Source: Candidatus Magasanikiibacteriota bacterium (GTDB lineage: Bacteria > Patescibacteriota > Patescibacteriia > Magasanikbacterales > 2-02-FULL-50-9b). From it: a DNA stretch of 64,000 nt. Both the position numbers and the translations under genes were made by a program. The notes below the pieces were generated by a model. That model was given only the letters and a program-made list of their open reading frames with translations. It did not search any database and was not told the DNA's origin. The stretch is from assembly GCA_903893485.1 (NCBI GenBank), contig CAITMK010000014.1, positions 2,144-66,143 on the forward strand. The letters run 5' to 3'. Positions 2,742 to 44,993 of this stretch are shown here, one piece after another; position 1 is the stretch's first letter; each line of letters opens with the position of its first letter.

Positions 2742-3398
2742 TTACCACGGATATATCTCACCCTTATACCAAAAATTACCTGATTCAACACGCTTTGCAA
2801 TAAGTGCAAAAATATCATTCGCAGCTTCTTGCGGCGTAATATCACCCTCACCTTCATTCATATCTGTCTTCACGTATCCTGGATGAACCGAGGAGACAAT
2901 CACCTTGCCCGCCAAACGCGCAGCAAGAATGCGAGTGAACATGTTCAACGCTGCTTTTGAAATACCATAATTTGGATATAGGCACGTCGTCGTAAATGAT
3001 AGCGAACCACGACGCGATGAAATGTTTATTATTTGTTCCGAAATCAAATTGTGAGCCAAAAGTTGTTCAGTAAAATCGATCGATCCAATTACATTTGAAT
3101 CCAATGTTTCCTGCAGAACCGCAACATCAATCGTTTGTGCCTCATCTTCTGGATGCCAAATGCCAGCATTATTAATCAAAATGTTAATCTTTTTATCAAG
3201 TGCTTGAATCGTGGCAGCGCATGTTTTGCGACTTTCTACTTGTGATAACTCGAGCGGTACAAACATTAAATTTTCATGCGAATACTCAGCTTCTCCAGAC
3301 CGGGATGTCCCGATAACGAAAAAACCTTCGTTCAAAAATTTTTCTGCGAGCGCGCGGCCGATGCCACGACTAGCGCCAGTGATTACTATGGTTTTCAT
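2742..3398 (-). CDS. Short-chain dehydrogenase/reductase (SDR) family oxidoreductase
   Basis: TGASRGIGRALA Rossmann motif, NNAG, and YxxxK catalytic motif (YGISKAAL). Confidence 0.85.
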   Translation of the reverse strand: MKTIVITGASRGIGRALAEKFLNEGFFVIGTSRSGEAEYSHENLMFVPLELSQVESRKTCAATIQALDKKINILINNAGIWHPEDEAQTIDVAVLQETLDSNVIGSIDFTEQLLAHNLISEQIINISSRRGSLSFTTTCLYPNYGISKAALNMFTRILAARLAGKVIVSSVHPGYVKTDMNEGEGDITPQEAANDIFALIAKRVESGNFWYKGEIYPW

Positions 3399-3712
3399 AT
3401 AAGTGGATACACATCAAGCGCAACCTCTTCATATGGGTGCGCAAATTTAATTGCAGCTATTACGTCATGAAGTGCAGATGACGGGCAAACAGTTTCGATG
3501 CGTTCCTCATTGACTTCTTCCAAATCACCAACCGATCCAATGTGCGGATGTGCACCTTCGAGCGGTTTAAATCGCCCAATGCCTTTGGATGAAAACGTGC
3601 AATTCGAGTAATTGCCTATGACACCTGCGCCCGCGGATGCCATTGCCTCGCGCACTACGTCGGCATGAGATTCCGGTACAAATACAACGATTTTATATTT
3701 TTCAAATTCCAT
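3395..3712 (-). CDS. PII/CutA-like small protein (standalone homologue of the NIF3/YqfO insert domain, COG3323-like)
   Basis: 105-aa sequence with GNYSNC and HPYEEVALDVYPL motifs reminiscent of the CutA/PII-fold insert of NIF3 proteins. Confidence 0.4.
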   Translation of the reverse strand: MEFEKYKIVVFVPESHADVVREAMASAGAGVIGNYSNCTFSSKGIGRFKPLEGAHPHIGSVGDLEEVNEERIETVCPSSALHDVIAAIKFAHPYEEVALDVYPLI

Positions 3713-8298: not shown

Positions 8299-8628
8299 TT
8301 ATGCGCGGAGCTTGCGTGCATCAACAGATTCTTCTTTAATTTTTACCACCTGTTTTTTGGTTGCCGCAATTGCTTGATCCATTGAATCGTAGAGATCATC
8401 GGATTCTGCAGCAGCGTACACTGATTTTTTGCCCATGATCATGTGCAATTCCGCGCGAAAAATTTTACCTTTGTGGTGATGATGCGTGGTGCGTGATAAT
8501 TCAACGCTTACAATTGCGTCATCGTGCAACGTGCCAACGATTTTGTCTAGGCGGCTGAATTTTTCTGCGGCGATTTGCTTAATAGCGGTGGTGAGGCTGA
8601 GGCCCGTACTATGGAATGTAATTTGCAT
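8299..8628 (-). CDS. hpf: Ribosome hibernation promoting factor (RaiA/HPF family)
   Basis: 109-aa sigma-54-modulation/RaiA fold signature MQITFHSTGLSLTTAIKQIAAEKFSRLDK. Confidence 0.85.
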   Translation of the reverse strand: MQITFHSTGLSLTTAIKQIAAEKFSRLDKIVGTLHDDAIVSVELSRTTHHHHKGKIFRAELHMIMGKKSVYAAAESDDLYDSMDQAIAATKKQVVKIKEESVDARKLRA

Positions 8629-18111: not shown

Positions 18112-19167
18112 TTATCCAACTTTTTCTTGGATGCGCGCACTTGGCAATTCAACTTCACGTAAAACTTCTGGATGTTCAAGCAGTAAGCCAGTGCCGCGTA
18201 CAACCGCAGTTGTTGGATCATCAGCAACGCGTACCGGAATTTCGCAAGCCTTTGCAATCGCACTATCGAGGCCACGGAGCTGCGTGCCGCCACCAACCAT
18301 TACAATGCCGCGTTCATGAATATCTGCGACCAATTCTGGTGGGGTAACTTCCAAGGTTGCCTTAACCGCATCAATAATAGATTTAACTGAACGATGCAGC
18401 GCCTCGCGCACATGCGAATCCGTAATCATCACTTCTTTTGGCAAGCCCGTGAGCAAATCTCGACCGCGCACTGCCATCTGTTCCCCACTTGCAAACGGTT
18501 CAGCGGAGCCCAATTTCTTTTTTACTTCTTCAGCCTGGTGTTCACCAACTAACAAATTAAAAGCTTCGCGGCAATATTGCACAATATTATGATCCATTTC
18601 GTCGCCCGCAATTGGCAGTGAACGCCACGTTACCACACCACCCAGCGAAATAACGGCGATTTCGGTGATACCCGCACCAACTGACATAATCATGGTGCCA
18701 ACCGCCTCTTCAACCGGCAGTCGAACGCCAAATGCTGCGGCCATGAGCGCTTCAATAACGTGCACCTCGGATGCGCCAGCAGAATAAGTTGCGTCTTCAA
18801 TTGCTTTGCGTTCTACTTCAGTAATTTCGAGCGGCGCGCCAATAACCACACGAGGACGCGCAACCAAATTCACACCATCTTCATGGATTTTATCGATAAA
18901 ATATTTAATCATTTTTTCCGCAACTTCGTAATCGGAAATAATTCCACGGAGCAACGGGCGCGACGTAGTGATATGCCCCGGCGTTTTGCCAACCATATCG
19001 CGTGCATGATGGCCCACCGCAATAATCTGATCAGTTTTACTATTCAGCGCCACCACGGATGGCTCATCAACCACAATGCCTTTGTCGCGCACATACACGC
19101 GTGTAAAAGAAGACCCTAAATCAAGGCCAACGTCCTTACTAAATTTCCGGAAAAAATTTTTAAACAT
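18112..19167 (-). CDS. mreB: Rod shape-determining actin homologue MreB
   Basis: Actin-fold ATPase motifs (GIDLGSS-like DLGSSFTRVYV, VGGGTQL). Confidence 0.95.
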   Translation of the reverse strand: MFKNFFRKFSKDVGLDLGSSFTRVYVRDKGIVVDEPSVVALNSKTDQIIAVGHHARDMVGKTPGHITTSRPLLRGIISDYEVAEKMIKYFIDKIHEDGVNLVARPRVVIGAPLEITEVERKAIEDATYSAGASEVHVIEALMAAAFGVRLPVEEAVGTMIMSVGAGITEIAVISLGGVVTWRSLPIAGDEMDHNIVQYCREAFNLLVGEHQAEEVKKKLGSAEPFASGEQMAVRGRDLLTGLPKEVMITDSHVREALHRSVKSIIDAVKATLEVTPPELVADIHERGIVMVGGGTQLRGLDSAIAKACEIPVRVADDPTTAVVRGTGLLLEHPEVLREVELPSARIQEKVG

Positions 19168-19179
19168 AACGATCTGGTC

Positions 19180-19560
19180 TTAGCGTCGCGATTCAAGCGT
19201 AACATATTGTTGTTCCAAAAGACCAATGGCTGCAATAAGAAGCAGCACCACCCACCACCGTAAAAAATTGTAGTGGAGTAGCATGAGCGAAATGACGAAG
19301 AGCACGGACAAAAGCGTTGCCTGTCGAAACGTACGGCGCACATACATGACGATTAATTCATCACGCTTTTGAATGTACACCCGAATGACAAACCCAATGA
19401 CCGCAAAAAAACCAAGCAGCGCCAAAAGTAAACTGAGATAAAAAAGCGCAATAATAGGATATCCCGCGGCCGGTGTGGTGGTGGTAAGCAAAACGCCCCA
19501 CGCGCCCCACGCAAGAATGTCGGTAAAAAGAACAAGTGCCAGAAAACCCTTTAGGGACAT
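19180..19560 (-). CDS. Hypothetical polytopic membrane protein
   Basis: 126 aa with 3-4 predicted TM helices. Confidence 0.45.
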   Translation of the reverse strand: MSLKGFLALVLFTDILAWGAWGVLLTTTTPAAGYPIIALFYLSLLLALLGFFAVIGFVIRVYIQKRDELIVMYVRRTFRQATLLSVLFVISLMLLHYNFLRWWVVLLLIAAIGLLEQQYVTLESRR

Positions 19561-20003: not shown

Positions 20004-20234
20004 ATGCTCTCGACTCGAATCGGTTTTTTACTGGCTCAACGGTTTGCCTATGCCACTTGTGGCGTTCTCTGCGTGGCATTTGGCACGATCAGCGCCGGGA
20101 TTGGCGGTATCGCAGCTGTGAGCGTAATTCCGGAAATGATCAGGGATCGCAACCCGAGCCACTGCCTCGGCGCCTTTCAAGTCAGCCGCGATTTCTTCGT
20201 TCTTGGCGCGCAGATCACTTTTTCGCGAGAGTGA
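20004..20234 (+). CDS. GC-rich island B1 small hydrophobic protein (76 aa)
   Basis: Strong SD plus promoter plus own terminator; N-terminal half hydrophobic (IGFLLAQRFAYATCGVLCVAFGTISAGIGGIAAVSVI). Confidence 0.5.
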   Translation: MLSTRIGFLLAQRFAYATCGVLCVAFGTISAGIGGIAAVSVIPEMIRDRNPSHCLGAFQVSRDFFVLGAQITFSRE

Positions 20235-20262
20235 TGATTACCGCCACACACAAAGGCGACCC

Positions 20263-20304
20263 GACCACTTTGTTTCGCACACGCGGACAAGGTGGTCATT
20301 TTTT
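20263..20304 (+). terminator. Intrinsic terminator of B1
   Basis: GACCACTTTG-loop-CAAGGTGGTC followed by ATTTTTT. Confidence 0.65.
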
Positions 20305-20346
20305 ATAAAAAAAGCGCCAGCGCCCGCGAGGTGTGCGGGGCTGGCG
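20305..20346 (-). terminator. Intrinsic terminator of B2 (copy 1 of 40-bp module)
   Basis: Minus strand CGCCAGCCCCGCACACCTCGCGGGCGCTGGCGC + TTTTTTT; near-identical copy at 20985-21023. Confidence 0.75.
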
Positions 20347-20376
20347 TTGCGACAAGTCGCTGGCGGCTGCCAGGGC

Positions 20377-20739
20377 TTATTCGCTGTAGAGGCACGAGAT
20401 GAAGAGCGATTTTGTAATGCCACCGCGAGCGGCTTGTACCTGACACGACTCGCCGACCTTCAGGCGATTCCAATCTTCTCGCGTAACTGAGAGATTAGCT
20501 TCACCTTCATCAATACGAAGCCTCAGCGTAAAGCGATCTTGCGAAACGCGAACCGAGTAGCGACTGCTCGGCTGAATTGCTCCGGGAGCCTGCGTTTTGC
20601 TCACCACCACGGCTTTGCACCGACCCAGATTCTTGCCGAACAAGACCTGGTCGATACAAGAAAATACCATGAAGATGAGCACGCCAGCGAACGTGATCAG
20701 GATCGCCAAGAGTATGAAATTACTAAGAAAATTCAACAT
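20377..20739 (-). CDS. GC-rich island B2: single-pass membrane protein with about 90-aa beta-rich ectodomain (DUF3592-like?)
   Basis: Start MLNFLSNF with SD GGAGTGG; TM helix FILLAILITFAGVLIFMVF, then RYSVRVSQDRFTLRLRID ... SVTREDWNRLKVGESCQV. Confidence 0.5.
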   Translation of the reverse strand: MLNFLSNFILLAILITFAGVLIFMVFSCIDQVLFGKNLGRCKAVVVSKTQAPGAIQPSSRYSVRVSQDRFTLRLRIDEGEANLSVTREDWNRLKVGESCQVQAARGGITKSLFISCLYSE

Positions 20740-20984
20740 TGTCCACTCCAAATCGTACAGCTTAGCCCATGATTGTGTAATAGCTGCAAATTGCACAACA
20801 AAACAGCATAGCATAAATATGCCGTTTTGTCAATGCTTTTAGTGTTACAGACTCAATAATCGCCGTGCTTTTTCATAACCATCTTCATCATTTTCCAGAT
20901 CGCGCAAAACCTCTGTCACGTTTGAAAATTGGGCTTGTAGTTTTTTTAAAAAACGCATGTCGCCTATGGATTTAGGATCTTAAT

Positions 20985-21023
20985 AAAAAAGCGCCAGCGC
21001 CCGCGAGTTGTGCGGGGCTGGCG
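20985..21023 (-). terminator. Intrinsic terminator of B3 (copy 2 of 40-bp module)
   Basis: AAAAAAGCGCCAGCGCCCGCGAGTTGTGCGGGGCTGGCG; differs from copy 1 by a single G/T. Confidence 0.75.
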
Positions 21024-21045: not shown

Positions 21046-21630
21046 TTAGCCAGGCAGACCGCCAATGCGGAAAGTTGGCGGACTCAGATCTACAATGCGC
21101 GGCGTGGCCGGCGGCGAGCAGCCAAAGTAGTCCAGGATTTTTGCAGCCATTTCTTCAGGACGGCCATAGCCACGGGCAACTGGCAACAAAAACGTCGCAA
21201 GTTCAATCTCGAAGTCCGCGCGCGTCTCGGCGGTGCAAAGCTCATCGAGCGTGGCGTTGCCGTGCTCCCGATAAAGCGCCTCGGCGTCGATGATCGGCAC
21301 CAGACGATAAAACGGCGCCGGCGCGTCATCCGTCGAAAAGGCATCGAGTGCCTTGCGATAAAAGCCACGACGCATCTCCTGCATCCGAACGCCCATCATC
21401 GCCGAATAGTTCAGGTCTCCCTGCATCTCGGCCATGAACGTCAACTGCGCCAGCGCTTCGACGCAGCATGCATACACGTTCGGGTCCGTCGCGACTTTCA
21501 AGAAAGACATGTGCCGAAGCACTTCTTGATATTTGTCGCTCGCCTCACTGCTATACACATCCAGCTGGCTGAGACAAAGCGCAACACGCTCCTGCAGCGT
21601 AGGCTTCACATACTCTGGAATCTTCGGCAT
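21046..21630 (-). CDS. GC-rich island B3 hypothetical all-alpha protein (194 aa)
   Basis: SD AGGGAG 8 nt before ATG; TTGACA -35 upstream; no recognisable domain. Confidence 0.5.
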   Translation of the reverse strand: MPKIPEYVKPTLQERVALCLSQLDVYSSEASDKYQEVLRHMSFLKVATDPNVYACCVEALAQLTFMAEMQGDLNYSAMMGVRMQEMRRGFYRKALDAFSTDDAPAPFYRLVPIIDAEALYREHGNATLDELCTAETRADFEIELATFLLPVARGYGRPEEMAAKILDYFGCSPPATPRIVDLSPPTFRIGGLPG

Positions 21631-21808: not shown

Positions 21809-24660
21809 CTATATGGACAGATGTCTTTAAAATCACAATTCCCACACGCAAACGCGCTCGGCGTCGCCGCAAAATCACTCGTTCGAATTTCCGCAACCGT
21901 TTCGCCAACAAACTTTTCAATTTTTTCCAAATCTTTTTCTTTCGGTACAAAGCTCGCCTTTTCATTATTTTGAATATAATAATAACTGAGCAGTGTTGAC
22001 GTGGTATCGAATTGGCGCAGCGCAGCTAAATAATAAATCAGCAATTGCTCCTTATCTTCGAATTTTAAATCATCAGATGTTTTTGGCGAACCTGTTTTAT
22101 AATCAATAATTTCAACCGTGCCACTTGGCAAAATATCCATGCGATCAATTGAACCGGTCAGCACTTCCCCGCCAACAGAAATTTTAAATCGCTGTTCAAT
22201 AAAAGATGGTTTGGTCCAATGTGCGCTGTTGGTGCGATAATAATCGCGCAGCATGGTTTCAGCTTCGGCGCGTTTTTTTTCTTCAAATATTCGCGACGGA
22301 TATCCCTCAGAAATCCAATGCGCGCCCAAGAGTTCAATCAGTTTTTCCATGGCCGGTGTTTCAATTTCTTCACGAAGTAATTCATACCACGCTTGCAGCG
22401 TACTATGAATCGTGCGCCCAAAATTCATGGTCCATTTGCTGCGCGTTGGCAATTTGAGTACATGACTAAACCAATACTGATACGGACAAGTTTCAAAAGA
22501 TTTGAGCGCGGTAAAACTGTAGGCTTCTTTTTTTTCTGCAGGAATTTGTAGCGGCAAAACGGGTGATTTTTTTTCCGCAACAACATCATCCGTTTCAAGC
22601 GTTGGGGTTATTGCAATTTTTGCTTCCGCAATAAATCGCGATGGTTTACGCACGCGCGAATTTTCCGCAGTTGAATATTTTTCCGCGCACGAAATAAATA
22701 ATTTATTTTTTGCGCGTGTAAATGCAACATACGCCAACCGACGTTCTTCTTGCGTATGATGATCATCGCTCACCGCTTGCTCACGTACCAGCGCATCAGG
22801 CAATTCAATTCCATTCGCGCGTTCGCTTCCCGGAAACCGTCCTTCAATAAAACTAACTACAAAAACATTTTCAAATTCTAATCCTTTCGATGAATGTGTC
22901 GTGAGCAGCTGCACTGCCTCAAGCGCGCCTGCATCCAATGTTTGCTGGCCTTCTTCTCCAAGCTCAAGCAACCGATCGCAGTCAGCCAAAAAATCTTGCG
23001 GTGTTGCATTCGAGTGCGCCGCTTCCCACTCCGCAACAAATTCCAAAAATTGATTTACCAGTTGCATGTCCGCACCGCCCGTTTCAGATCCTGCGGTAAT
23101 TTCTTGTAACAATGCACGAAAATATCCTGACTTTTCGAGCAACTCATACAAAATAGAACTTGCTTTATTCGTGCGTAAAAATTCTACATCGATTTTTATT
23201 TTTTCGCCAAGCGCAAGCAGTGCCGTTTTTCCTTCTTCACTGAGCGACGGCGCAAATTCAGATAACAACGCCTGCGACAATTGCAAATTATTTTTCTTCG
23301 CATGCGCAATACTTTCCAAAACATCAGTCGATGGCACCACGGACACGCGCGAAATTGCAAGCTGATACCACGCGTTGCCATTATGGCGTTCAAGCGCCAC
23401 ACGCAGCAGCGCAAGCATATCAATCGCCGCGCGCGTTCGAAGCAATCCATCGGTTTGTGCAATCACATATGGCACCTGCAAACGTCGAAGTTCACCCGCT
23501 GTTTCTTCCAAATGCGACGACGCACGCGCCAAAACCGCAATTTGTTTTGGATCGCAACCCGCCGCAATTAACTGCGCAATCTCTGCCGCAATCCATTTTG
23601 CTTCTTTTATTGCCGATGGAAATTGATGTGCCTCTACCATGCCACCCGCGCCGCGCGCCGCACGTAATTTTTTCTCACCATTTTTTTCCAAACGATCTGG
23701 ATTATTATTTTGAATCAGCGCATACGCCGCATCCAAAATTTCTTGCTCAGATCGATAATTTTCTGTTAAAAAAACTTCTGCATGATTTGGAAATCGATTG
23801 CGAAACTGCAAAATATTATCAACACTCGCGCCGCGAAATTTATAAATCGCTTGATCGTCATCACCCACCACCGTAATATTTTGTGCGCTGCCCGCGAGTG
23901 CACAAACTAAATCATATTGCGCCATATTCGTATCCTGAAATTCATCAACCACAATATATTTATATCGCGACTGCAATCGCGCCAGCACGCTTGGCCGCTC
24001 AGTTAAAACGCGGTTTGCATACAATAATAAATCACCAAAATCCATGACCCCGCGCTGCAATAAAATTGTTTGATAGGTTTCATATGCCGCGGCTAATTCG
24101 GCCCAGCGTGCCGCATCATCGGCAGCAACTACATCGTCCGTCACCGCGCCGCTCGCAAAATCATCAGCAAATTTTTTGTACTGCTCTACCGAAATATTTT
24201 CATCTTTCGCGCGCAAAAAATGTTTAATTAAACTTCGCAAAAATTTTGTTGGATTTCCATGCGGCTTAAAATATTTTAAATCAAACCGATCAAATTCGTG
24301 ATGCAGCAGTAACCAAAGTTCTACTTCGCTCAGCAGCGGCGCACCTGGCGTCACTCCAATTTCCAATCCATAACGCGACAAAAGTTGCTGACAAAATCCA
24401 TGAAACGTCGCGGTATTCACCGCAATCGCGTTGTGCCCAATTAATTTTTCCAAACGTTCGCTCATTTCCGCCGCGGCCTTTTCGGTAAACGTAAGCGCCA
24501 CAATTTCGCCTGGTTTCGCAAGCCCCTGCTCCACCAGCCACGCAATACGATGCGTAATTACATTTGTCTTGCCCGTGCCTGCGCCCGCAATAATCATGAG
24601 CGGTCCTTGGCCATGTGTGATTGCTTTTTTTTGCGCTTCATTAAGGTGAGACAAATCCAT
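21799..24660 (-). CDS. UvrD/PcrA-family helicase fused to C-terminal Cas4/RecB-like PD-(D/E)XK nuclease with 4-Cys Fe-S motif (single-chain AddAB-like helicase-nuclease)
   Basis: Walker A GAGTGKT, DEFQDT, C-terminal nuclease with CPYQYW ... CGNCDFKDIC; real start MDLSHLNEAQ near 24660. Confidence 0.85.
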   Translation of the reverse strand: MDLSHLNEAQKKAITHGQGPLMIIAGAGTGKTNVITHRIAWLVEQGLAKPGEIVALTFTEKAAAEMSERLEKLIGHNAIAVNTATFHGFCQQLLSRYGLEIGVTPGAPLLSEVELWLLLHHEFDRFDLKYFKPHGNPTKFLRSLIKHFLRAKDENISVEQYKKFADDFASGAVTDDVVAADDAARWAELAAAYETYQTILLQRGVMDFGDLLLYANRVLTERPSVLARLQSRYKYIVVDEFQDTNMAQYDLVCALAGSAQNITVVGDDDQAIYKFRGASVDNILQFRNRFPNHAEVFLTENYRSEQEILDAAYALIQNNNPDRLEKNGEKKLRAARGAGGMVEAHQFPSAIKEAKWIAAEIAQLIAAGCDPKQIAVLARASSHLEETAGELRRLQVPYVIAQTDGLLRTRAAIDMLALLRVALERHNGNAWYQLAISRVSVVPSTDVLESIAHAKKNNLQLSQALLSEFAPSLSEEGKTALLALGEKIKIDVEFLRTNKASSILYELLEKSGYFRALLQEITAGSETGGADMQLVNQFLEFVAEWEAAHSNATPQDFLADCDRLLELGEEGQQTLDAGALEAVQLLTTHSSKGLEFENVFVVSFIEGRFPGSERANGIELPDALVREQAVSDDHHTQEERRLAYVAFTRAKNKLFISCAEKYSTAENSRVRKPSRFIAEAKIAITPTLETDDVVAEKKSPVLPLQIPAEKKEAYSFTALKSFETCPYQYWFSHVLKLPTRSKWTMNFGRTIHSTLQAWYELLREEIETPAMEKLIELLGAHWISEGYPSRIFEEKKRAEAETMLRDYYRTNSAHWTKPSFIEQRFKISVGGEVLTGSIDRMDILPSGTVEIIDYKTGSPKTSDDLKFEDKEQLLIYYLAALRQFDTTSTLLSYYYIQNNEKASFVPKEKDLEKIEKFVGETVAEIRTSDFAATPSAFACGNCDFKDICPYREL

Positions 24661-24689
24661 AGGTATGAATTGTATCACATGCAGCATAA

Positions 24690-25500
24690 AAAAAAGTAGG
24701 GCTCGGCAGCGGCATACGATGCGAAACGAGTTCGCAGGTACACCGCTACCGAGCCGGGAAACTATTCACCGAACAACTTTCGCAGTCGGACACCCAGTTC
24801 GGGCACTAACAGATTTTCTCACGACTAGCAATCGCGATACTCATCTGAATTTCTACAGCCGCGGGCGCATCTTACGATCGCCCATTTTTCCCGCTCCCCA
24901 TTTCAGAGAAACGAGCCTTTAACCTAACTGTCGCTTGAAACAGCAGGTCTCAGTTGTCACAATGCCATCAATCGGCCGCGACTTGCGAATTCACCACCTT
25001 ACCAAATTCCATCGCCATGGAGTTTTGATATCGGACAAAATCAGTCCGACGTGCTGCACATGATAGCGCAGCCGAAGCATCTTTCAGAAGAACCCCAATG
25101 AACACTATCGCCGTTGGGCCAGCTCTGGACCCTTTGCGACGCCGGCTGTCTTTCAACAACCGACTTGCATACTCACCCTTAGAGGTCGCCACCACATCCT
25201 GGTAAAGCCATCCTTACGGTGGCTAACCGACCAAGCGAGATTCTCTACAGGGGAAGAACTCCAGCAATCCACTATGCCAATGGACGCTTTTACTGCCCTA
25301 TACGAGCGACAGCCGAGCAATTATTATACCAAAAAAATAGCAAAAATGGTTAGAGCCATTAATCGATCCGCGCTTTGCGAGATCAACACCCCCTTCGTCT
25401 GGGATTAGGTCGCCATGCCTAGAGGGCCGTTGACAACTTAGAACCAGGATAGCCTATAAAAAGCTATTTGTCAAGACCCGCTTGGCAAAAAAGCTAAAAT
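24690..25500. other. ORF-poor, GC-elevated, highly structured region of about 0.8 kb (candidate large ncRNA or decayed cassette)
   Basis: No ORF above 90 aa with RBS; 13-bp stem GGCTCGGCAGCGG ... CCGCTACCGAGCC at about 24702-24757; many further local stems. Confidence 0.3.
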
Positions 25501-25543
25501 AAAATAAAAAAGACCCGCGACGTGAGTTCTCACAATCGCGGGG
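25501..25543 (-). terminator. Intrinsic terminator of island C gene
   Basis: Minus strand CCCGCGA-loop-TCGCGGG followed by TCTTTTTTATTTT. Confidence 0.7.
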
Positions 25544-25572
25544 GCTCATTGAGCCTGGTTTGCTGGACGCGG

Positions 25573-26091
25573 CTACACCTCGGATGCGCCCGCAGAATTC
25601 GTAGCGAAGATAACGCGTGCGAACACAGAGGCTGGAAGCACTTTCGCTTTCAAGCGCTGCCACGTGGTCGGTTTGCCGTACTGATACAGCTTGAGCGACG
25701 GAAAATCCCGGAGATTCCACAGCGCCGCGCGTGCCGCACCTACATGCGTGACGTCCGTCCAGACCTTGATGACGGTATCCCGTGAGATTTCGCTCGCAAG
25801 CAGGTATTGATGGAACACCACCGTGCTCTGCTGCACCGAATCGCCACCGTAAAGCGTGACGAACGTGGGAGTTTGCTGATTTCCGTGAGGATCTCGCAGT
25901 GCCCACTCCTGCCTCAAATAGTCCAAAATGGCCGTGTGATTGCCTTCGCCACAGAGCGCAACAACCGTTCGGGCGTTGTGCTGCTTGGCAAGAGCGATCG
26001 CGTCGTCTAAGTAATGCTGATGATCAAATGTCTCCGGATTCACGTCGCGACACAAAATCGCAAGGCAGACTGGATGTTTGTTGAATTGCAT
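25573..26091 (-). CDS. GC-rich island C hypothetical protein (172 aa; weak DUF218/YdcF-like resemblance)
   Basis: SD AGGAGG 6 nt before ATG; TTGACA-17-TATTTT promoter with TGn extension; LCGEGNH ... TLYGGDS pattern. Confidence 0.5.
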   Translation of the reverse strand: MQFNKHPVCLAILCRDVNPETFDHQHYLDDAIALAKQHNARTVVALCGEGNHTAILDYLRQEWALRDPHGNQQTPTFVTLYGGDSVQQSTVVFHQYLLASEISRDTVIKVWTDVTHVGAARAALWNLRDFPSLKLYQYGKPTTWQRLKAKVLPASVFARVIFATNSAGASEV

Positions 26092-26220: not shown

Positions 26221-28064
<1,844 letters not shown>

Positions 28065-28154: not shown

Positions 28155-28796
28155 ATGTTGCGTCGAATCGCTTCGTTTCTGGTTCTCTTTGTGCTCTGCT
28201 TCACAACGACGCCGGCATTTGCTTGGGGTCGCGGTGGTGGTGGAGGTGGTGGTCATGGCGGCGGCGGTTACCGCGGAGGTGGTGGCGGCTGGACCGGTGG
28301 CTATCGCGGCGGTGGCGGAGGTGGTTACTACAACGGCGGTTACCGCAGCGGTGGCAGCTGGGGTGGCTACAGCACCTGGGGCACTAGCCCTCGGTACGTA
28401 AACGCTTGGAACTACCCGAACCGGATCGTCTATCCCGCGCCCGTGCCGATGTGCACGTACCGCGACAGCTGGGGACGAATCTATCAGGCGATCTGCGTGG
28501 CACGTCCGGCCGTGGTGTATGCGCCGCCCGTGCAGCAATACGTGCAGCCCGCGCCGATCCCGCAGCAATACCTGGCGGATCAGCCGCCGGTATACGGACA
28601 GCCGCAGCAGCAAGTAGCTGCCCCGGCTCCGCCCGCAGCTGTTCAAGGCACGCACACCTTCGGCTGCTACCAGGCGCGCGACAACAACTTCTGGTACTGC
28701 GACGCAGACCAGCAGAAGTTCGCCAGCTGCACGCCGGCGGATACCACAGGCAACTTCGTTTGCCAGCAGCAAGTGATCGAATACGTCCGGCCATAA
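28155..28796 (+). CDS. GC-rich island D: secreted Gly/Tyr/Arg-rich, Pro/Gln-rich, Cys-rich protein (213 aa)
   Basis: Signal peptide MLRRIASFLVLFVLCFTTTPAFA; GGGGYRGGGGG repeats; PQQ/PAP linker; 6-Cys C-terminal domain; about 62% GC; opposite strand to the atp operon. Confidence 0.6.
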   Translation: MLRRIASFLVLFVLCFTTTPAFAWGRGGGGGGGHGGGGYRGGGGGWTGGYRGGGGGGYYNGGYRSGGSWGGYSTWGTSPRYVNAWNYPNRIVYPAPVPMCTYRDSWGRIYQAICVARPAVVYAPPVQQYVQPAPIPQQYLADQPPVYGQPQQQVAAPAPPAAVQGTHTFGCYQARDNNFWYCDADQQKFASCTPADTTGNFVCQQQVIEYVRP

Positions 28797-28879: not shown

Positions 28880-29827
28880 TTATTCGAGCGCTGCTTTACC
28901 CGCACTAATTTCCGAAATTTCTTTCGTGATGCTGGCTTGGCGCGCTTGATTAAACACAAGGGTCAATGAATCGATCATGTCAGTTGCAGCATCAGAGGCA
29001 CTACGCATCGCCATCATGCGCGCGCTGTGCTCTGAGGCAGCAGATTCCAAGACCGTTTCAAACACTTGTGACTCAATCAACCGCGTCACGGCAGTAGTAA
29101 TAATTTTTTCTGCAGATGGTTCCAAAAGCAAAAACTTTTCTTCAAAGTTTTTGTGATCAGCTGGCATGCTTGCGTCCGCGCCCAATGTTTTTTCCAAATC
29201 AACTTCGGAAACTGGCAACACCTGACGAATTTTTGCGGTTTGCAAAAGTGGTGAAACAAAATGCGTGTACACGATTGCAACTTTATCGTATTCCTGTTTT
29301 GCAAAACTTTGCACCACCATATTTACCAAAGGCTGCGCCTCGGCAAATTTTGGCGTATCAGAAATATCAATGAAACTTGCAACGATTTTGCCACCTTGTT
29401 TACGCACCGAACTTTCCGCGCGCTTGCCAACGGTGATGTATTCAATTTCAACATCGGTTACCGATGATTCAACTGTTTTGTCGCCAACGCGGCTACGTAG
29501 AAGTTGCGGCAAATTTTTAAGCTGTTGTGCTAATTTTTTGCCAACGTTTGCATTAAAGCCGCCAGCTAAACCACGGTTAGAAGAAATCACGACAAGTAAA
29601 AGCTTTTTAACCGGGCGCTGCGCAAAAAGTGGATGATCCACCGGTGCCTGGGCGCGCAAACGAAGCAATAATTCCCACGCGTAACCTGCATAGGAACGAG
29701 ACTGAACCGCAGACGCAGTTGCACGACGCATCTTAGCCGCGGAAACAAGTTCCATGGCCTTGGTGATTTTTTTGGTGTTCTTCACCGACTTGATGCGATT
29801 GCGAATGACGCGTCCGGATACTGCCAT
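28880..29827 (-). CDS. atpG: F-type ATP synthase gamma subunit
   Basis: 315 aa, gamma family N- and C-terminal helices. Confidence 0.9.
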   Translation of the reverse strand: MAVSGRVIRNRIKSVKNTKKITKAMELVSAAKMRRATASAVQSRSYAGYAWELLLRLRAQAPVDHPLFAQRPVKKLLLVVISSNRGLAGGFNANVGKKLAQQLKNLPQLLRSRVGDKTVESSVTDVEIEYITVGKRAESSVRKQGGKIVASFIDISDTPKFAEAQPLVNMVVQSFAKQEYDKVAIVYTHFVSPLLQTAKIRQVLPVSEVDLEKTLGADASMPADHKNFEEKFLLLEPSAEKIITTAVTRLIESQVFETVLESAASEHSARMMAMRSASDAATDMIDSLTLVFNQARQASITKEISEISAGKAALE

Positions 29828-32279: not shown

Positions 32280-32498
32280 TTAGAGAACGAACACTACAAC
32301 CAATGCGTAAATAGCGATAGCTTCTGCGAATGCTGCACCAAGTAACATTGGGACAAAAACTTTGTCACTTGCTTCTGGGTTGCGACCAATTGCTTCCATT
32401 GCTTTACCAACAATGTTACCAACTGCCCAAGCAGGAAGCATACCACCCAAAGCGATAGTAAGACCTTTTGCGAGAACTGTAATTACTGCGACGTCCAT
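32280..32498 (-). CDS. atpE: F-type ATP synthase c subunit
   Basis: 72-aa helical hairpin GAAFAEAIAIYALVVVFVL. Confidence 0.85.
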   Translation of the reverse strand: MDVAVITVLAKGLTIALGGMLPAWAVGNIVGKAMEAIGRNPEASDKVFVPMLLGAAFAEAIAIYALVVVFVL

Positions 32499-38723: not shown

Positions 38724-38748
38724 AAAATCTACCCATTATGGGTAGATT
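38724..38748 (-). terminator. Hairpin terminator after ferredoxin gene
   Basis: AAATCTACCC-ATTAT-GGGTAGATTT perfect 10-bp stem then T-run on the minus strand; overlaps the stop codon. Confidence 0.55.
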
Positions 38749-38972
38749 TGATTTCCCTCTTCGTCGATAAGGGTGATCGCAAGCGTTGGACAGCTTTGCG
38801 CACCAAGCAAAATCGTGTCGTAATCGTCAGTCCATGGTTCAATAACCACTGCTTTGTTTTCATCGTCCATATAAAAGGTACGGCCCGCAACAGCCACACA
38901 CGATGCGGCACCAATGCAAGCTTCACGATCAACAATTACTTTTGCAATTTTCTTTTTTGGTGTTTCTTCCAT
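38736..38972 (-). CDS. Small mono-cluster ferredoxin (Fer4_13-like)
   Basis: 78 aa, DREACIGAASCVAVAG ... CPTLAI cysteine pattern. Confidence 0.6.
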   Translation of the reverse strand: MEETPKKKIAKVIVDREACIGAASCVAVAGRTFYMDDENKAVVIEPWTDDYDTILLGAQSCPTLAITLIDEEGNQIYP

Positions 38973-44711: not shown

Positions 44712-44993
44712 TTATTTCAACTTCTTAGCCAGCGAATTTAAAGCTTTTTTAACTTCGGCGTGACCTGCTGATTTATCCCAACTCTTAAGTGCTGCTGACA
44801 CATCTTTCTTGATATTTTTAATACCATCTGGATGTCCAGCTGCATATTCTTTTTGGATTTTGCCCCACACGTCTTTAATTTTTTCTTCGATTAAAGCCTT
44901 TTTTTCTTTACCTTTTGGCGTTGTCTGCATCCAAACAGACAAAGCGCCCACAAGACCTCCAAGAGCGACGCCCTTTAAAAATCTTTTACCCAT
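44712..44993 (-). CDS. YtxH-like small membrane-associated protein
   Basis: N-terminal GVALGGLVGALSV then Lys-rich helix. Confidence 0.4.
   Translation of the reverse strand: MGKRFLKGVALGGLVGALSVWMQTTPKGKEKKALIEEKIKDVWGKIQKEYAAGHPDGIKNIKKDVSAALKSWDKSAGHAEVKKALNSLAKKLK

Follow-up and report, generated by a model that had tools for sequence, protein, structure and literature searches.

Between ORF172 and the gene for a UvrD-helicase/PD-(D/E)XK nuclease, an uncultured Candidatus Magasanikiibacteriota bacterium carries an ORF-free segment of about 0.8 kb (24690-25500 of the window, i. e. of the whole stretch of 64,000 nucleotides that was analysed). We regard it as a species-specific non-coding accessory segment with promoter-like sites and a terminator of its own, and hence as a candidate orphan ncRNA; we prefer this reading and hold it with somewhat less than even confidence. 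The segment codes for no protein, none of the relatives carries it, its predicted folding is more stable than that of shuffled sequences and controls, and the terminator-like hairpin at its downstream end favours the minus strand. We infer three further things: that the promoters may fire, that an RNA may accumulate, and that this RNA may have a function.

Position and gene content of the segment

All genes around the segment are carried by the minus strand and, read along that strand, follow each other in this order:
28880-29827, minus strand: atpG
between atpG and atpD: a GC-rich insert
26639-28012, minus strand: atpD
26221-26652, minus strand: atpC
25573-26091, minus strand: ORF172 (172 aa)
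24690-25500: the segment
21799-24660, minus strand: the UvrD-helicase/PD-(D/E)XK nuclease gene (the helicase gene)

An earlier sequence-only reading had singled out the segment as the sole stretch of more than 300 bp in the window without a credible ORF, and this description holds: wherever else large ORFs are more than 300 nt apart, a credible small gene lies in between (at 8299-8628, HPF-like; at 44712-44993; at 3395-3712; at 32280-32498, atpE; and at 38736-38972, ferredoxin-like), so that only this one long stretch remains ORF-free. The longest ORFs within the segment comprise 85 aa (plus strand, overlapping the terminator), 75 aa and 55 aa (minus strand), and public gene callers left the interval equally empty on the identical metagenome contig L001, which stems from an ENA assembly. 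The elevated GC content that had been noted is real but modest: it amounts to 0.501 as compared to 0.461 for the window and 0.30-0.49 in 13 spacers, while the neighbouring GC-rich islands reach 0.55-0.63. On the minus strand G exceeds C, and this skew matches the coding strand of the helicase gene. With a DGR template, a CRISPR array or terminal inverted repeats in mind, we searched for repeats; none of significance was found inside the segment, and none elsewhere in the window.

Several tests agree that the segment does not code for protein. The period-3 chi-square is 1-10 over 24600-25600 (null about 6, window median about 20), which makes this the longest aperiodic run of the window, and the adjoining ORF172 is clearly periodic in the same test. 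Within 24690-25500, the number of stop codons per frame is 6-19, and no frame lacks any of the three stop types; an alternative genetic code was therefore rejected, as it would rescue no ORF. The codon-usage log-likelihood does not exceed 0.07 in any of the six frames as compared to 0.2-0.4 for host genes. The six-frame translation had no match in Pfam at E<=1 and none at E<=10 among 5.8 billion proteins in a search that uses a word index, and tblastx of the segment against the genes that fill the same slot in relatives was negative as well. Two larger ORFs from that slot, of 371 aa in L006 and of 364 aa in L091, were considered and are unrelated to the segment. The earlier reading, in which decayed coding DNA was one option, had named a frame-shifted ORF with protein homologues as the finding that would point to a pseudogene; Pfam, the large protein search and tblastx failed to reveal one, and neither the period-3 test nor codon usage gave a coding signal. 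Despite these negative pseudogene tests, an old or foreign relic is an alternative that has to be taken seriously (see below).

The GC-rich islands of the neighbourhood contain genes of their own. The island between atpG and atpD (28155-28796, plus strand; GC content 0.62-0.68), lies within the ATP synthase operon and proved to be a genuine antisense gene, which has the SD sequence GGAGGG and encodes a protein of 213 aa with a signal-peptide-like N-terminus and a low-complexity body rich in glycine, tyrosine and proline. L002, L006 and L091 carry an ORF at the same position, and the island has no detectable similarity to L002 or L006. Two adjacent GC-rich orphan genes on the minus strand, ORF145 (20377-20814) and ORF194 (21046-21630), end in the same 39-nt terminator, CGCCAGCCCCGCACA(C/A)CTCGCGGGCGCTGGCGCTTTTTT (20308-20346 and 20985-21023, 97% identical), which hints at a cassette-like duplication or recombination.

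Border elements and predicted folding

The segment is framed by putative regulatory elements; these and its other parts are, in the direction of the minus strand:
25485-25544, minus strand: intrinsic terminator of ORF172, made up of a hairpin (25544-25514) and a long U-rich tract; it delimits the segment upstream
25446-25474, minus strand: P1, a candidate sigma-70-like promoter (TTGACA, 17 nt, TATCCT; 10 of 12 matches)
25323-25331, minus strand: P2, a candidate internal promoter with the extended -10-like motif TGGTATAAT, put forward from the motif
24971-25192, minus strand: a 74-aa ORF, probably spurious (GTG at 25192, stop codon 24968-24970; AGGA, 4 nt, GTG)
24756-25316, minus strand: the core, a predicted G- and U-rich RNA with about 17 local hairpins, among them 10-bp stems with GAAA and UGAAAU loops
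24700-24755, minus strand: terminator-like hairpin (inverted repeat 24700-24717 / 24738-24755)
24688-24695, minus strand: U8 tract (A8 on the plus strand), 4 nt (CUAC) downstream of the hairpin, as read from the letters
24669-24677, minus strand: putative promoter of the helicase gene, with the extended -10 TGATACAAT 8 nt ahead of the ATG at 24660; outside the segment, at its downstream border

The most conspicuous of these elements is the hairpin at the downstream end. A 13-bp stem about 40 nt upstream of the helicase start had been noticed before; it exists and lies where it had been placed, yet it is longer than described, with an outer stem of 18 bp and an inner helix of 6 bp. A distance of 40 nt separates it from the helicase ATG at 24660, and on the minus strand it has a minimum free energy of -42.5 kcal/mol (z -9.8). 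The corresponding plus-strand hairpin is weaker (-34.3 kcal/mol), since C.A mismatches take the place of the G.U pairs; moreover, on the plus strand the A-run precedes the hairpin and there is no U-run after it. In both the window and L009, the relative with the most similar helicase, hairpin and U-run are followed by the -10 motif of the helicase gene in the same order, and we therefore read the hairpin with its U8 tract as the intrinsic terminator of the upstream unit, which would also insulate the helicase promoter. It shares with known intrinsic terminators the succession of a stable GC-rich hairpin and a U-run on the transcribed strand, here the minus strand, as well as a location where one unit ends and the promoter of the next one follows, and the terminator of L009 has the same position. 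It differs from them in that it is unusually long and stable and in that U8 starts 4 nt after the stem, as opposed to 0-2 nt for the canonical U-run. A simple terminator scan skipped the hairpin, since its limits for loop and spacing were exceeded.

The promoter calls are matches to consensus motifs and should be taken as candidates. Four promoter-like sites are present in 2 kb as compared to 1.7 +/- 1.1 in shuffled sequences. About 100 nt beyond P1 and ahead of P2, a weak hairpin with a U-rich run is predicted (approximately 25337-25362). At the helicase border, L009 has a hairpin, a U-run, TGATAAAAT, 7 nt and the ATG (975-996), and this arrangement follows the unrelated ORF162. The extended -10 motif (TGATACAAT in the window, TGATAAAAT in L009) is thus conserved in two species, 7-8 nt before the helicase ATG. 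The helicase gene appears to be near-leaderless.

On both strands, and more so on the minus strand, the segment is predicted to fold better than shuffled sequences, and the excess stability is genuine but moderate. The whole segment has a z-score of -5.3 against shuffled sequences on the minus strand and of -4.8 on the plus strand; with the terminators left aside, the core (24760-25445) still reaches -3.99 and -2.61, respectively, as compared to a mean of -0.33 (sd 1.22, minimum -2.62) for 32 size-matched coding controls. The comparison with shuffled controls, which had been proposed as a check, thus turned out in favour of structure. The excess persists when the sequence is shuffled in blocks of 50 or 100 nt that keep the local composition (z -3.9 and -3.1). 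In a scan of 10-40 kb with 200-nt windows, the minus strand of the segment has the lowest running-mean z of these 30 kb and, with ten in a row, the longest series of windows with z<-1.5. The many local helices that had been seen by eye are borne out by the minus-strand minimum free energy fold, which contains 20 hairpins as compared to a mean of 13.9 and a maximum of 19 in the 32 coding controls. The gain is modest, about 25 kcal/mol or 10%, and it comes from short local hairpins with no defined long-range architecture; the frequency of the minimum free energy fold in the ensemble is about 0, i. e. the ensemble is far from a single fold. For the plus strand, the same scan gave its strongest folding signal at 20101-20700, where 200-nt windows have z-scores of -3.8, -6.0 and -2.6; this region belongs to the GC-rich island downstream of the helicase gene and overlaps small orphan ORFs.

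The atpC-helicase interval in relatives and strains

By the homologues of its helicase, the bacterium belongs to Candidatus Magasanikbacteria (Patescibacteria/CPR). Its nearest relatives carry helicases that are 60-76% identical, and the interval between atpC and the helicase gene is filled differently in them:
L009, the closest relative (helicase 76%): one unrelated 162-aa ORF (ORF162); segment absent
L002, L003, L004 and L015 (helicase 70-74%): interval empty, 108 nt only
L007 (helicase 71%): genes for a pseudouridine synthase and an S8 peptidase
L005 (helicase 69%): three genes on the opposite strand
L176, L177 and L178 (helicase 67-70%): other cargo again
L091 (helicase 67%): one 364-aa ORF
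L006 (helicase 60%): two ORFs

Judging from this comparison of gene content, the atpC-helicase interval is a gene-flux hotspot. The segment itself has been found in this species only: in blastn, tblastx and nhmmer searches against 171 non-self helicase-linked loci (about 1.6 Mb), solely the N-terminus of the helicase gave matches. No match to the segment was obtained among PLSDB plasmids and GenBank phages (distant blastn) or, with four probes of 20-25 nt, in IMG/VR, and the rest of the window has no similarity to it. The neighbouring ORF172 is an orphan as well, as the contig scan and the protein search returned only ORF172 itself; for the orphan ORFs nearby, no meaningful match was obtained with PADLOC, PHROGs and NCBIfam. 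The gap of L005 is unstructured (z +0.7 to +0.8). In L007, a GC-rich ORF-free stretch of 379 nt (709-1087) is located on the atpC-proximal side and has a z-score of -2.9; this stretch has no Rfam match and no sequence similarity to the segment of the window.

Identical contigs were obtained from lake or groundwater samples (ENA ERZ18661749, ERZ18662010, ERZ27313556/57; run ERR4194672). Within the species, contigs are 100% identical over the segment wherever they cover it, and no polymorphism was seen. The segment is covered only in part by several of them, which break off at 24799, 24982 (twice) and 24999. L174, which represents the same species in two samples, diverges right after the ORF172 terminator at about 25487-25494, and its remaining 34 nt (659-692) are absent from the window. 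This suggests strain-level structural variation at the upstream border of the segment; taken together, the L174 variant and the contig breaks suggest that the segment may be dispensable within the species. Gene content also varies at another site of these loci: in L002, L005, L006 and L007, hisS (tRNA-synt_2b, 415 aa) is located between an ORF of 126-128 aa and mreB, and the window (about 19180-19560 to 18112-19167) and L001 lack hisS at that position.

Readings of the segment

If the segment is a transcription unit of its own, the following scenario can be envisaged. The ORF172 terminator would close the upstream unit; P1 (25474-25446) and/or P2 with its motif TGGTATAAT (25331-25323) would start a G- and U-rich RNA of about 630-750 nt, this RNA would fold into about 20 short local hairpins, and its 3' end would be formed at the 24-bp hairpin with the subsequent CUAC and U8 (24755-24688), which may in addition insulate the near-leaderless helicase promoter just downstream. 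Four observations speak for such a unit: the layout of promoter and terminator elements, the minus-strand bias of the terminator and of the folding of the core, a GC content above that of the spacers, and the lack of any coding trace. On the other hand, no homologue and no Rfam match were found, the segment is missing from L009, the closest relative, the excess stability is modest, and the distance of 4 nt between stem and U-run falls short of the ideal intrinsic terminator. Conservation would normally be expected of a functional structured RNA as large as this, and the absence from all relatives argues against a conserved structured RNA. The idea of a large structured ncRNA, as it had been raised from the sequence, fares accordingly: folding, strand asymmetry, promoter-like sites and terminator are compatible with it, and the lack of an Rfam match and of homologues and the absence from relatives are not in its favour. 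If functional, the segment would be a candidate for a young orphan ncRNA outside any conserved family.

Nearly as likely, and close to the candidate ncRNA unit in our estimate, is that the segment is a non-functional relic: an accessory gene or cassette, or a piece of foreign non-coding DNA, would at some time have entered the hotspot between atpC and the helicase gene and left this remnant. Of it, only the terminator shielding the helicase promoter would still be useful, and the hairpins would be a residue, e. g. of old terminators or palindromes, rather than selected RNA structure. Such an origin would fit a slot that turns over rapidly, with different cargo or none in each relative, next to a gene, ORF172, that is an orphan too, and in a position where the closest relative L009 lacks the segment. 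It is also in line with the divergence of L174 exactly at the upstream border and the breaks of assemblies at 24799, 24982 (twice) and 24999, with the failure to find conservation or a known family, and with an unremarkable architecture, a string of short hairpins in an ensemble far from a single fold. Moreover, the plus strand folds better than shuffled sequences as well (z -2.6), as would be expected of palindromes at the DNA level. As in pseudogenes of other hotspots, the segment occupies a slot of diverse accessory genes, has an orphan gene as its neighbour, and relatives can do without it; it differs from them in that no residual frame, periodicity or protein similarity is left in any frame. 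This complete lack of a coding trace (period-3 chi-square 1-10, stops in every frame, no protein or tblastx match) speaks against the relic: a decay as complete as this should have eroded GC content, promoter and terminator, yet the GC content is 0.50 and the hairpin is near-perfect. In addition, the minus strand is more structured than the plus strand, and CPR genomes are compact, so that 0.8 kb of junk would be unusual. The two readings are compatible with each other since a relic can still be transcribed.

It is tempting to speculate that the segment is the gene for a large structured ncRNA (about 0.63-0.75 kb) that is new and restricted to its lineage, carried as cargo in a CPR hotspot, with a lifestyle similar to that of GOLLD or ROOL, and perhaps working together with ORF172; we consider this unlikely. 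With OLE, GOLLD, ROOL, HEARO and raiA, the segment shares the size of about 0.6-0.75 kb, the organization as a stand-alone unit with promoter-like and terminator elements, and a predicted fold of more than the expected stability. GOLLD and ROOL, moreover, are often located in DNA that is variable or mobile. In contrast to the large ncRNA families, however, the segment matches no covariance model (E<=10), has neither homologues nor covarying structure, and folds into a string of short hairpins with no multi-domain architecture. Hairpins in series are also typical of the CsrB/RsmZ sponge RNAs; the segment differs from these in that no loop motif is repeated and GGA is not enriched (9 occurrences as compared to 14.7 expected from composition), and a CsrB-like sponge was rejected for this reason. 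The literature on structured ncRNAs of CPR bacteria and on Magasanikbacteria yielded nothing relevant.

It is even less likely, to the point of being quite improbable, that the segment is the mRNA for a small protein, i. e. for the 74-aa ORF, with the remainder as untranslated region. This ORF is the only one in the segment with an SD-like motif (AGGA 4 nt before GTG), and an identical 74-aa protein has been predicted somewhere by a public gene caller. Yet the spacer is too short and the SD sequence is weak in comparison to the AGGAGG of ORF172, the codon score of the ORF is 0.04 as opposed to 0.2-0.4 in small host genes, and the period-3 signal is absent. Among 1.84 billion cluster representatives the ORF matches only itself, and on L001 it was left uncalled.

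Hardly any weight can be given to the idea that a large RNA of known class (RNase P, tmRNA, group I or II intron, OLE/GOLLD/ROOL/HEARO, 6S, SRP) has diverged so far as to escape the models. Size and richness in hairpins would fit, and RNAs of CPR bacteria can be divergent. However, cmscan with Rfam 15 gave no match in the whole window at gathering thresholds and none at E<=10 over 24300-26000 on both strands with permissive filters, ARAGORN found neither tRNA nor tmRNA, and Rfam gave no match on ten related loci; these scans agree with the earlier inspection by eye, in which no tmRNA, RNase P, SRP, 6S or group II intron signature had been recognized. Moreover, a housekeeping RNA would be conserved, and yet the slot is empty in some relatives; nor does the window contain an adjacent IscB, TnpB, reverse transcriptase or intron-encoded protein. 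Equally improbable is a long regulated 5' leader of the helicase-nuclease gene (an attenuator or riboswitch), as had also been proposed: the segment lies directly upstream of the helicase gene on the same strand and the terminator-like hairpin could in principle serve as an attenuator, but the helicase has its own conserved extended -10 motif between U-run and ATG, 8 nt from the start codon, which leads us to reject this reading, the same arrangement is present in L009 after an unrelated protein gene, the helicase orthologues of L002 and L015 have just 108 nt upstream, and no riboswitch or leader family of Rfam matches.

The candidate orphan ncRNA, the reading that we prefer, introduces no feature of an unfamiliar kind, as intrinsic terminators, accessory hotspots and candidate orphan ncRNAs are all known. 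If it is a relic, the segment marks a sharply bounded hotspot of gene flux between the core genes atpC and UvrD-nuclease helicase, with strain-level variation, that would be useful for understanding how DNA is gained and lost in streamlined CPR genomes. If it is transcribed and functional, its RNA would be among the very few large ncRNAs that have been proposed for Patescibacteria/CPR, the RNA repertoire of which has barely been explored, and accessory hotspots of tiny genomes would then be able to carry RNA genes besides orphan proteins.
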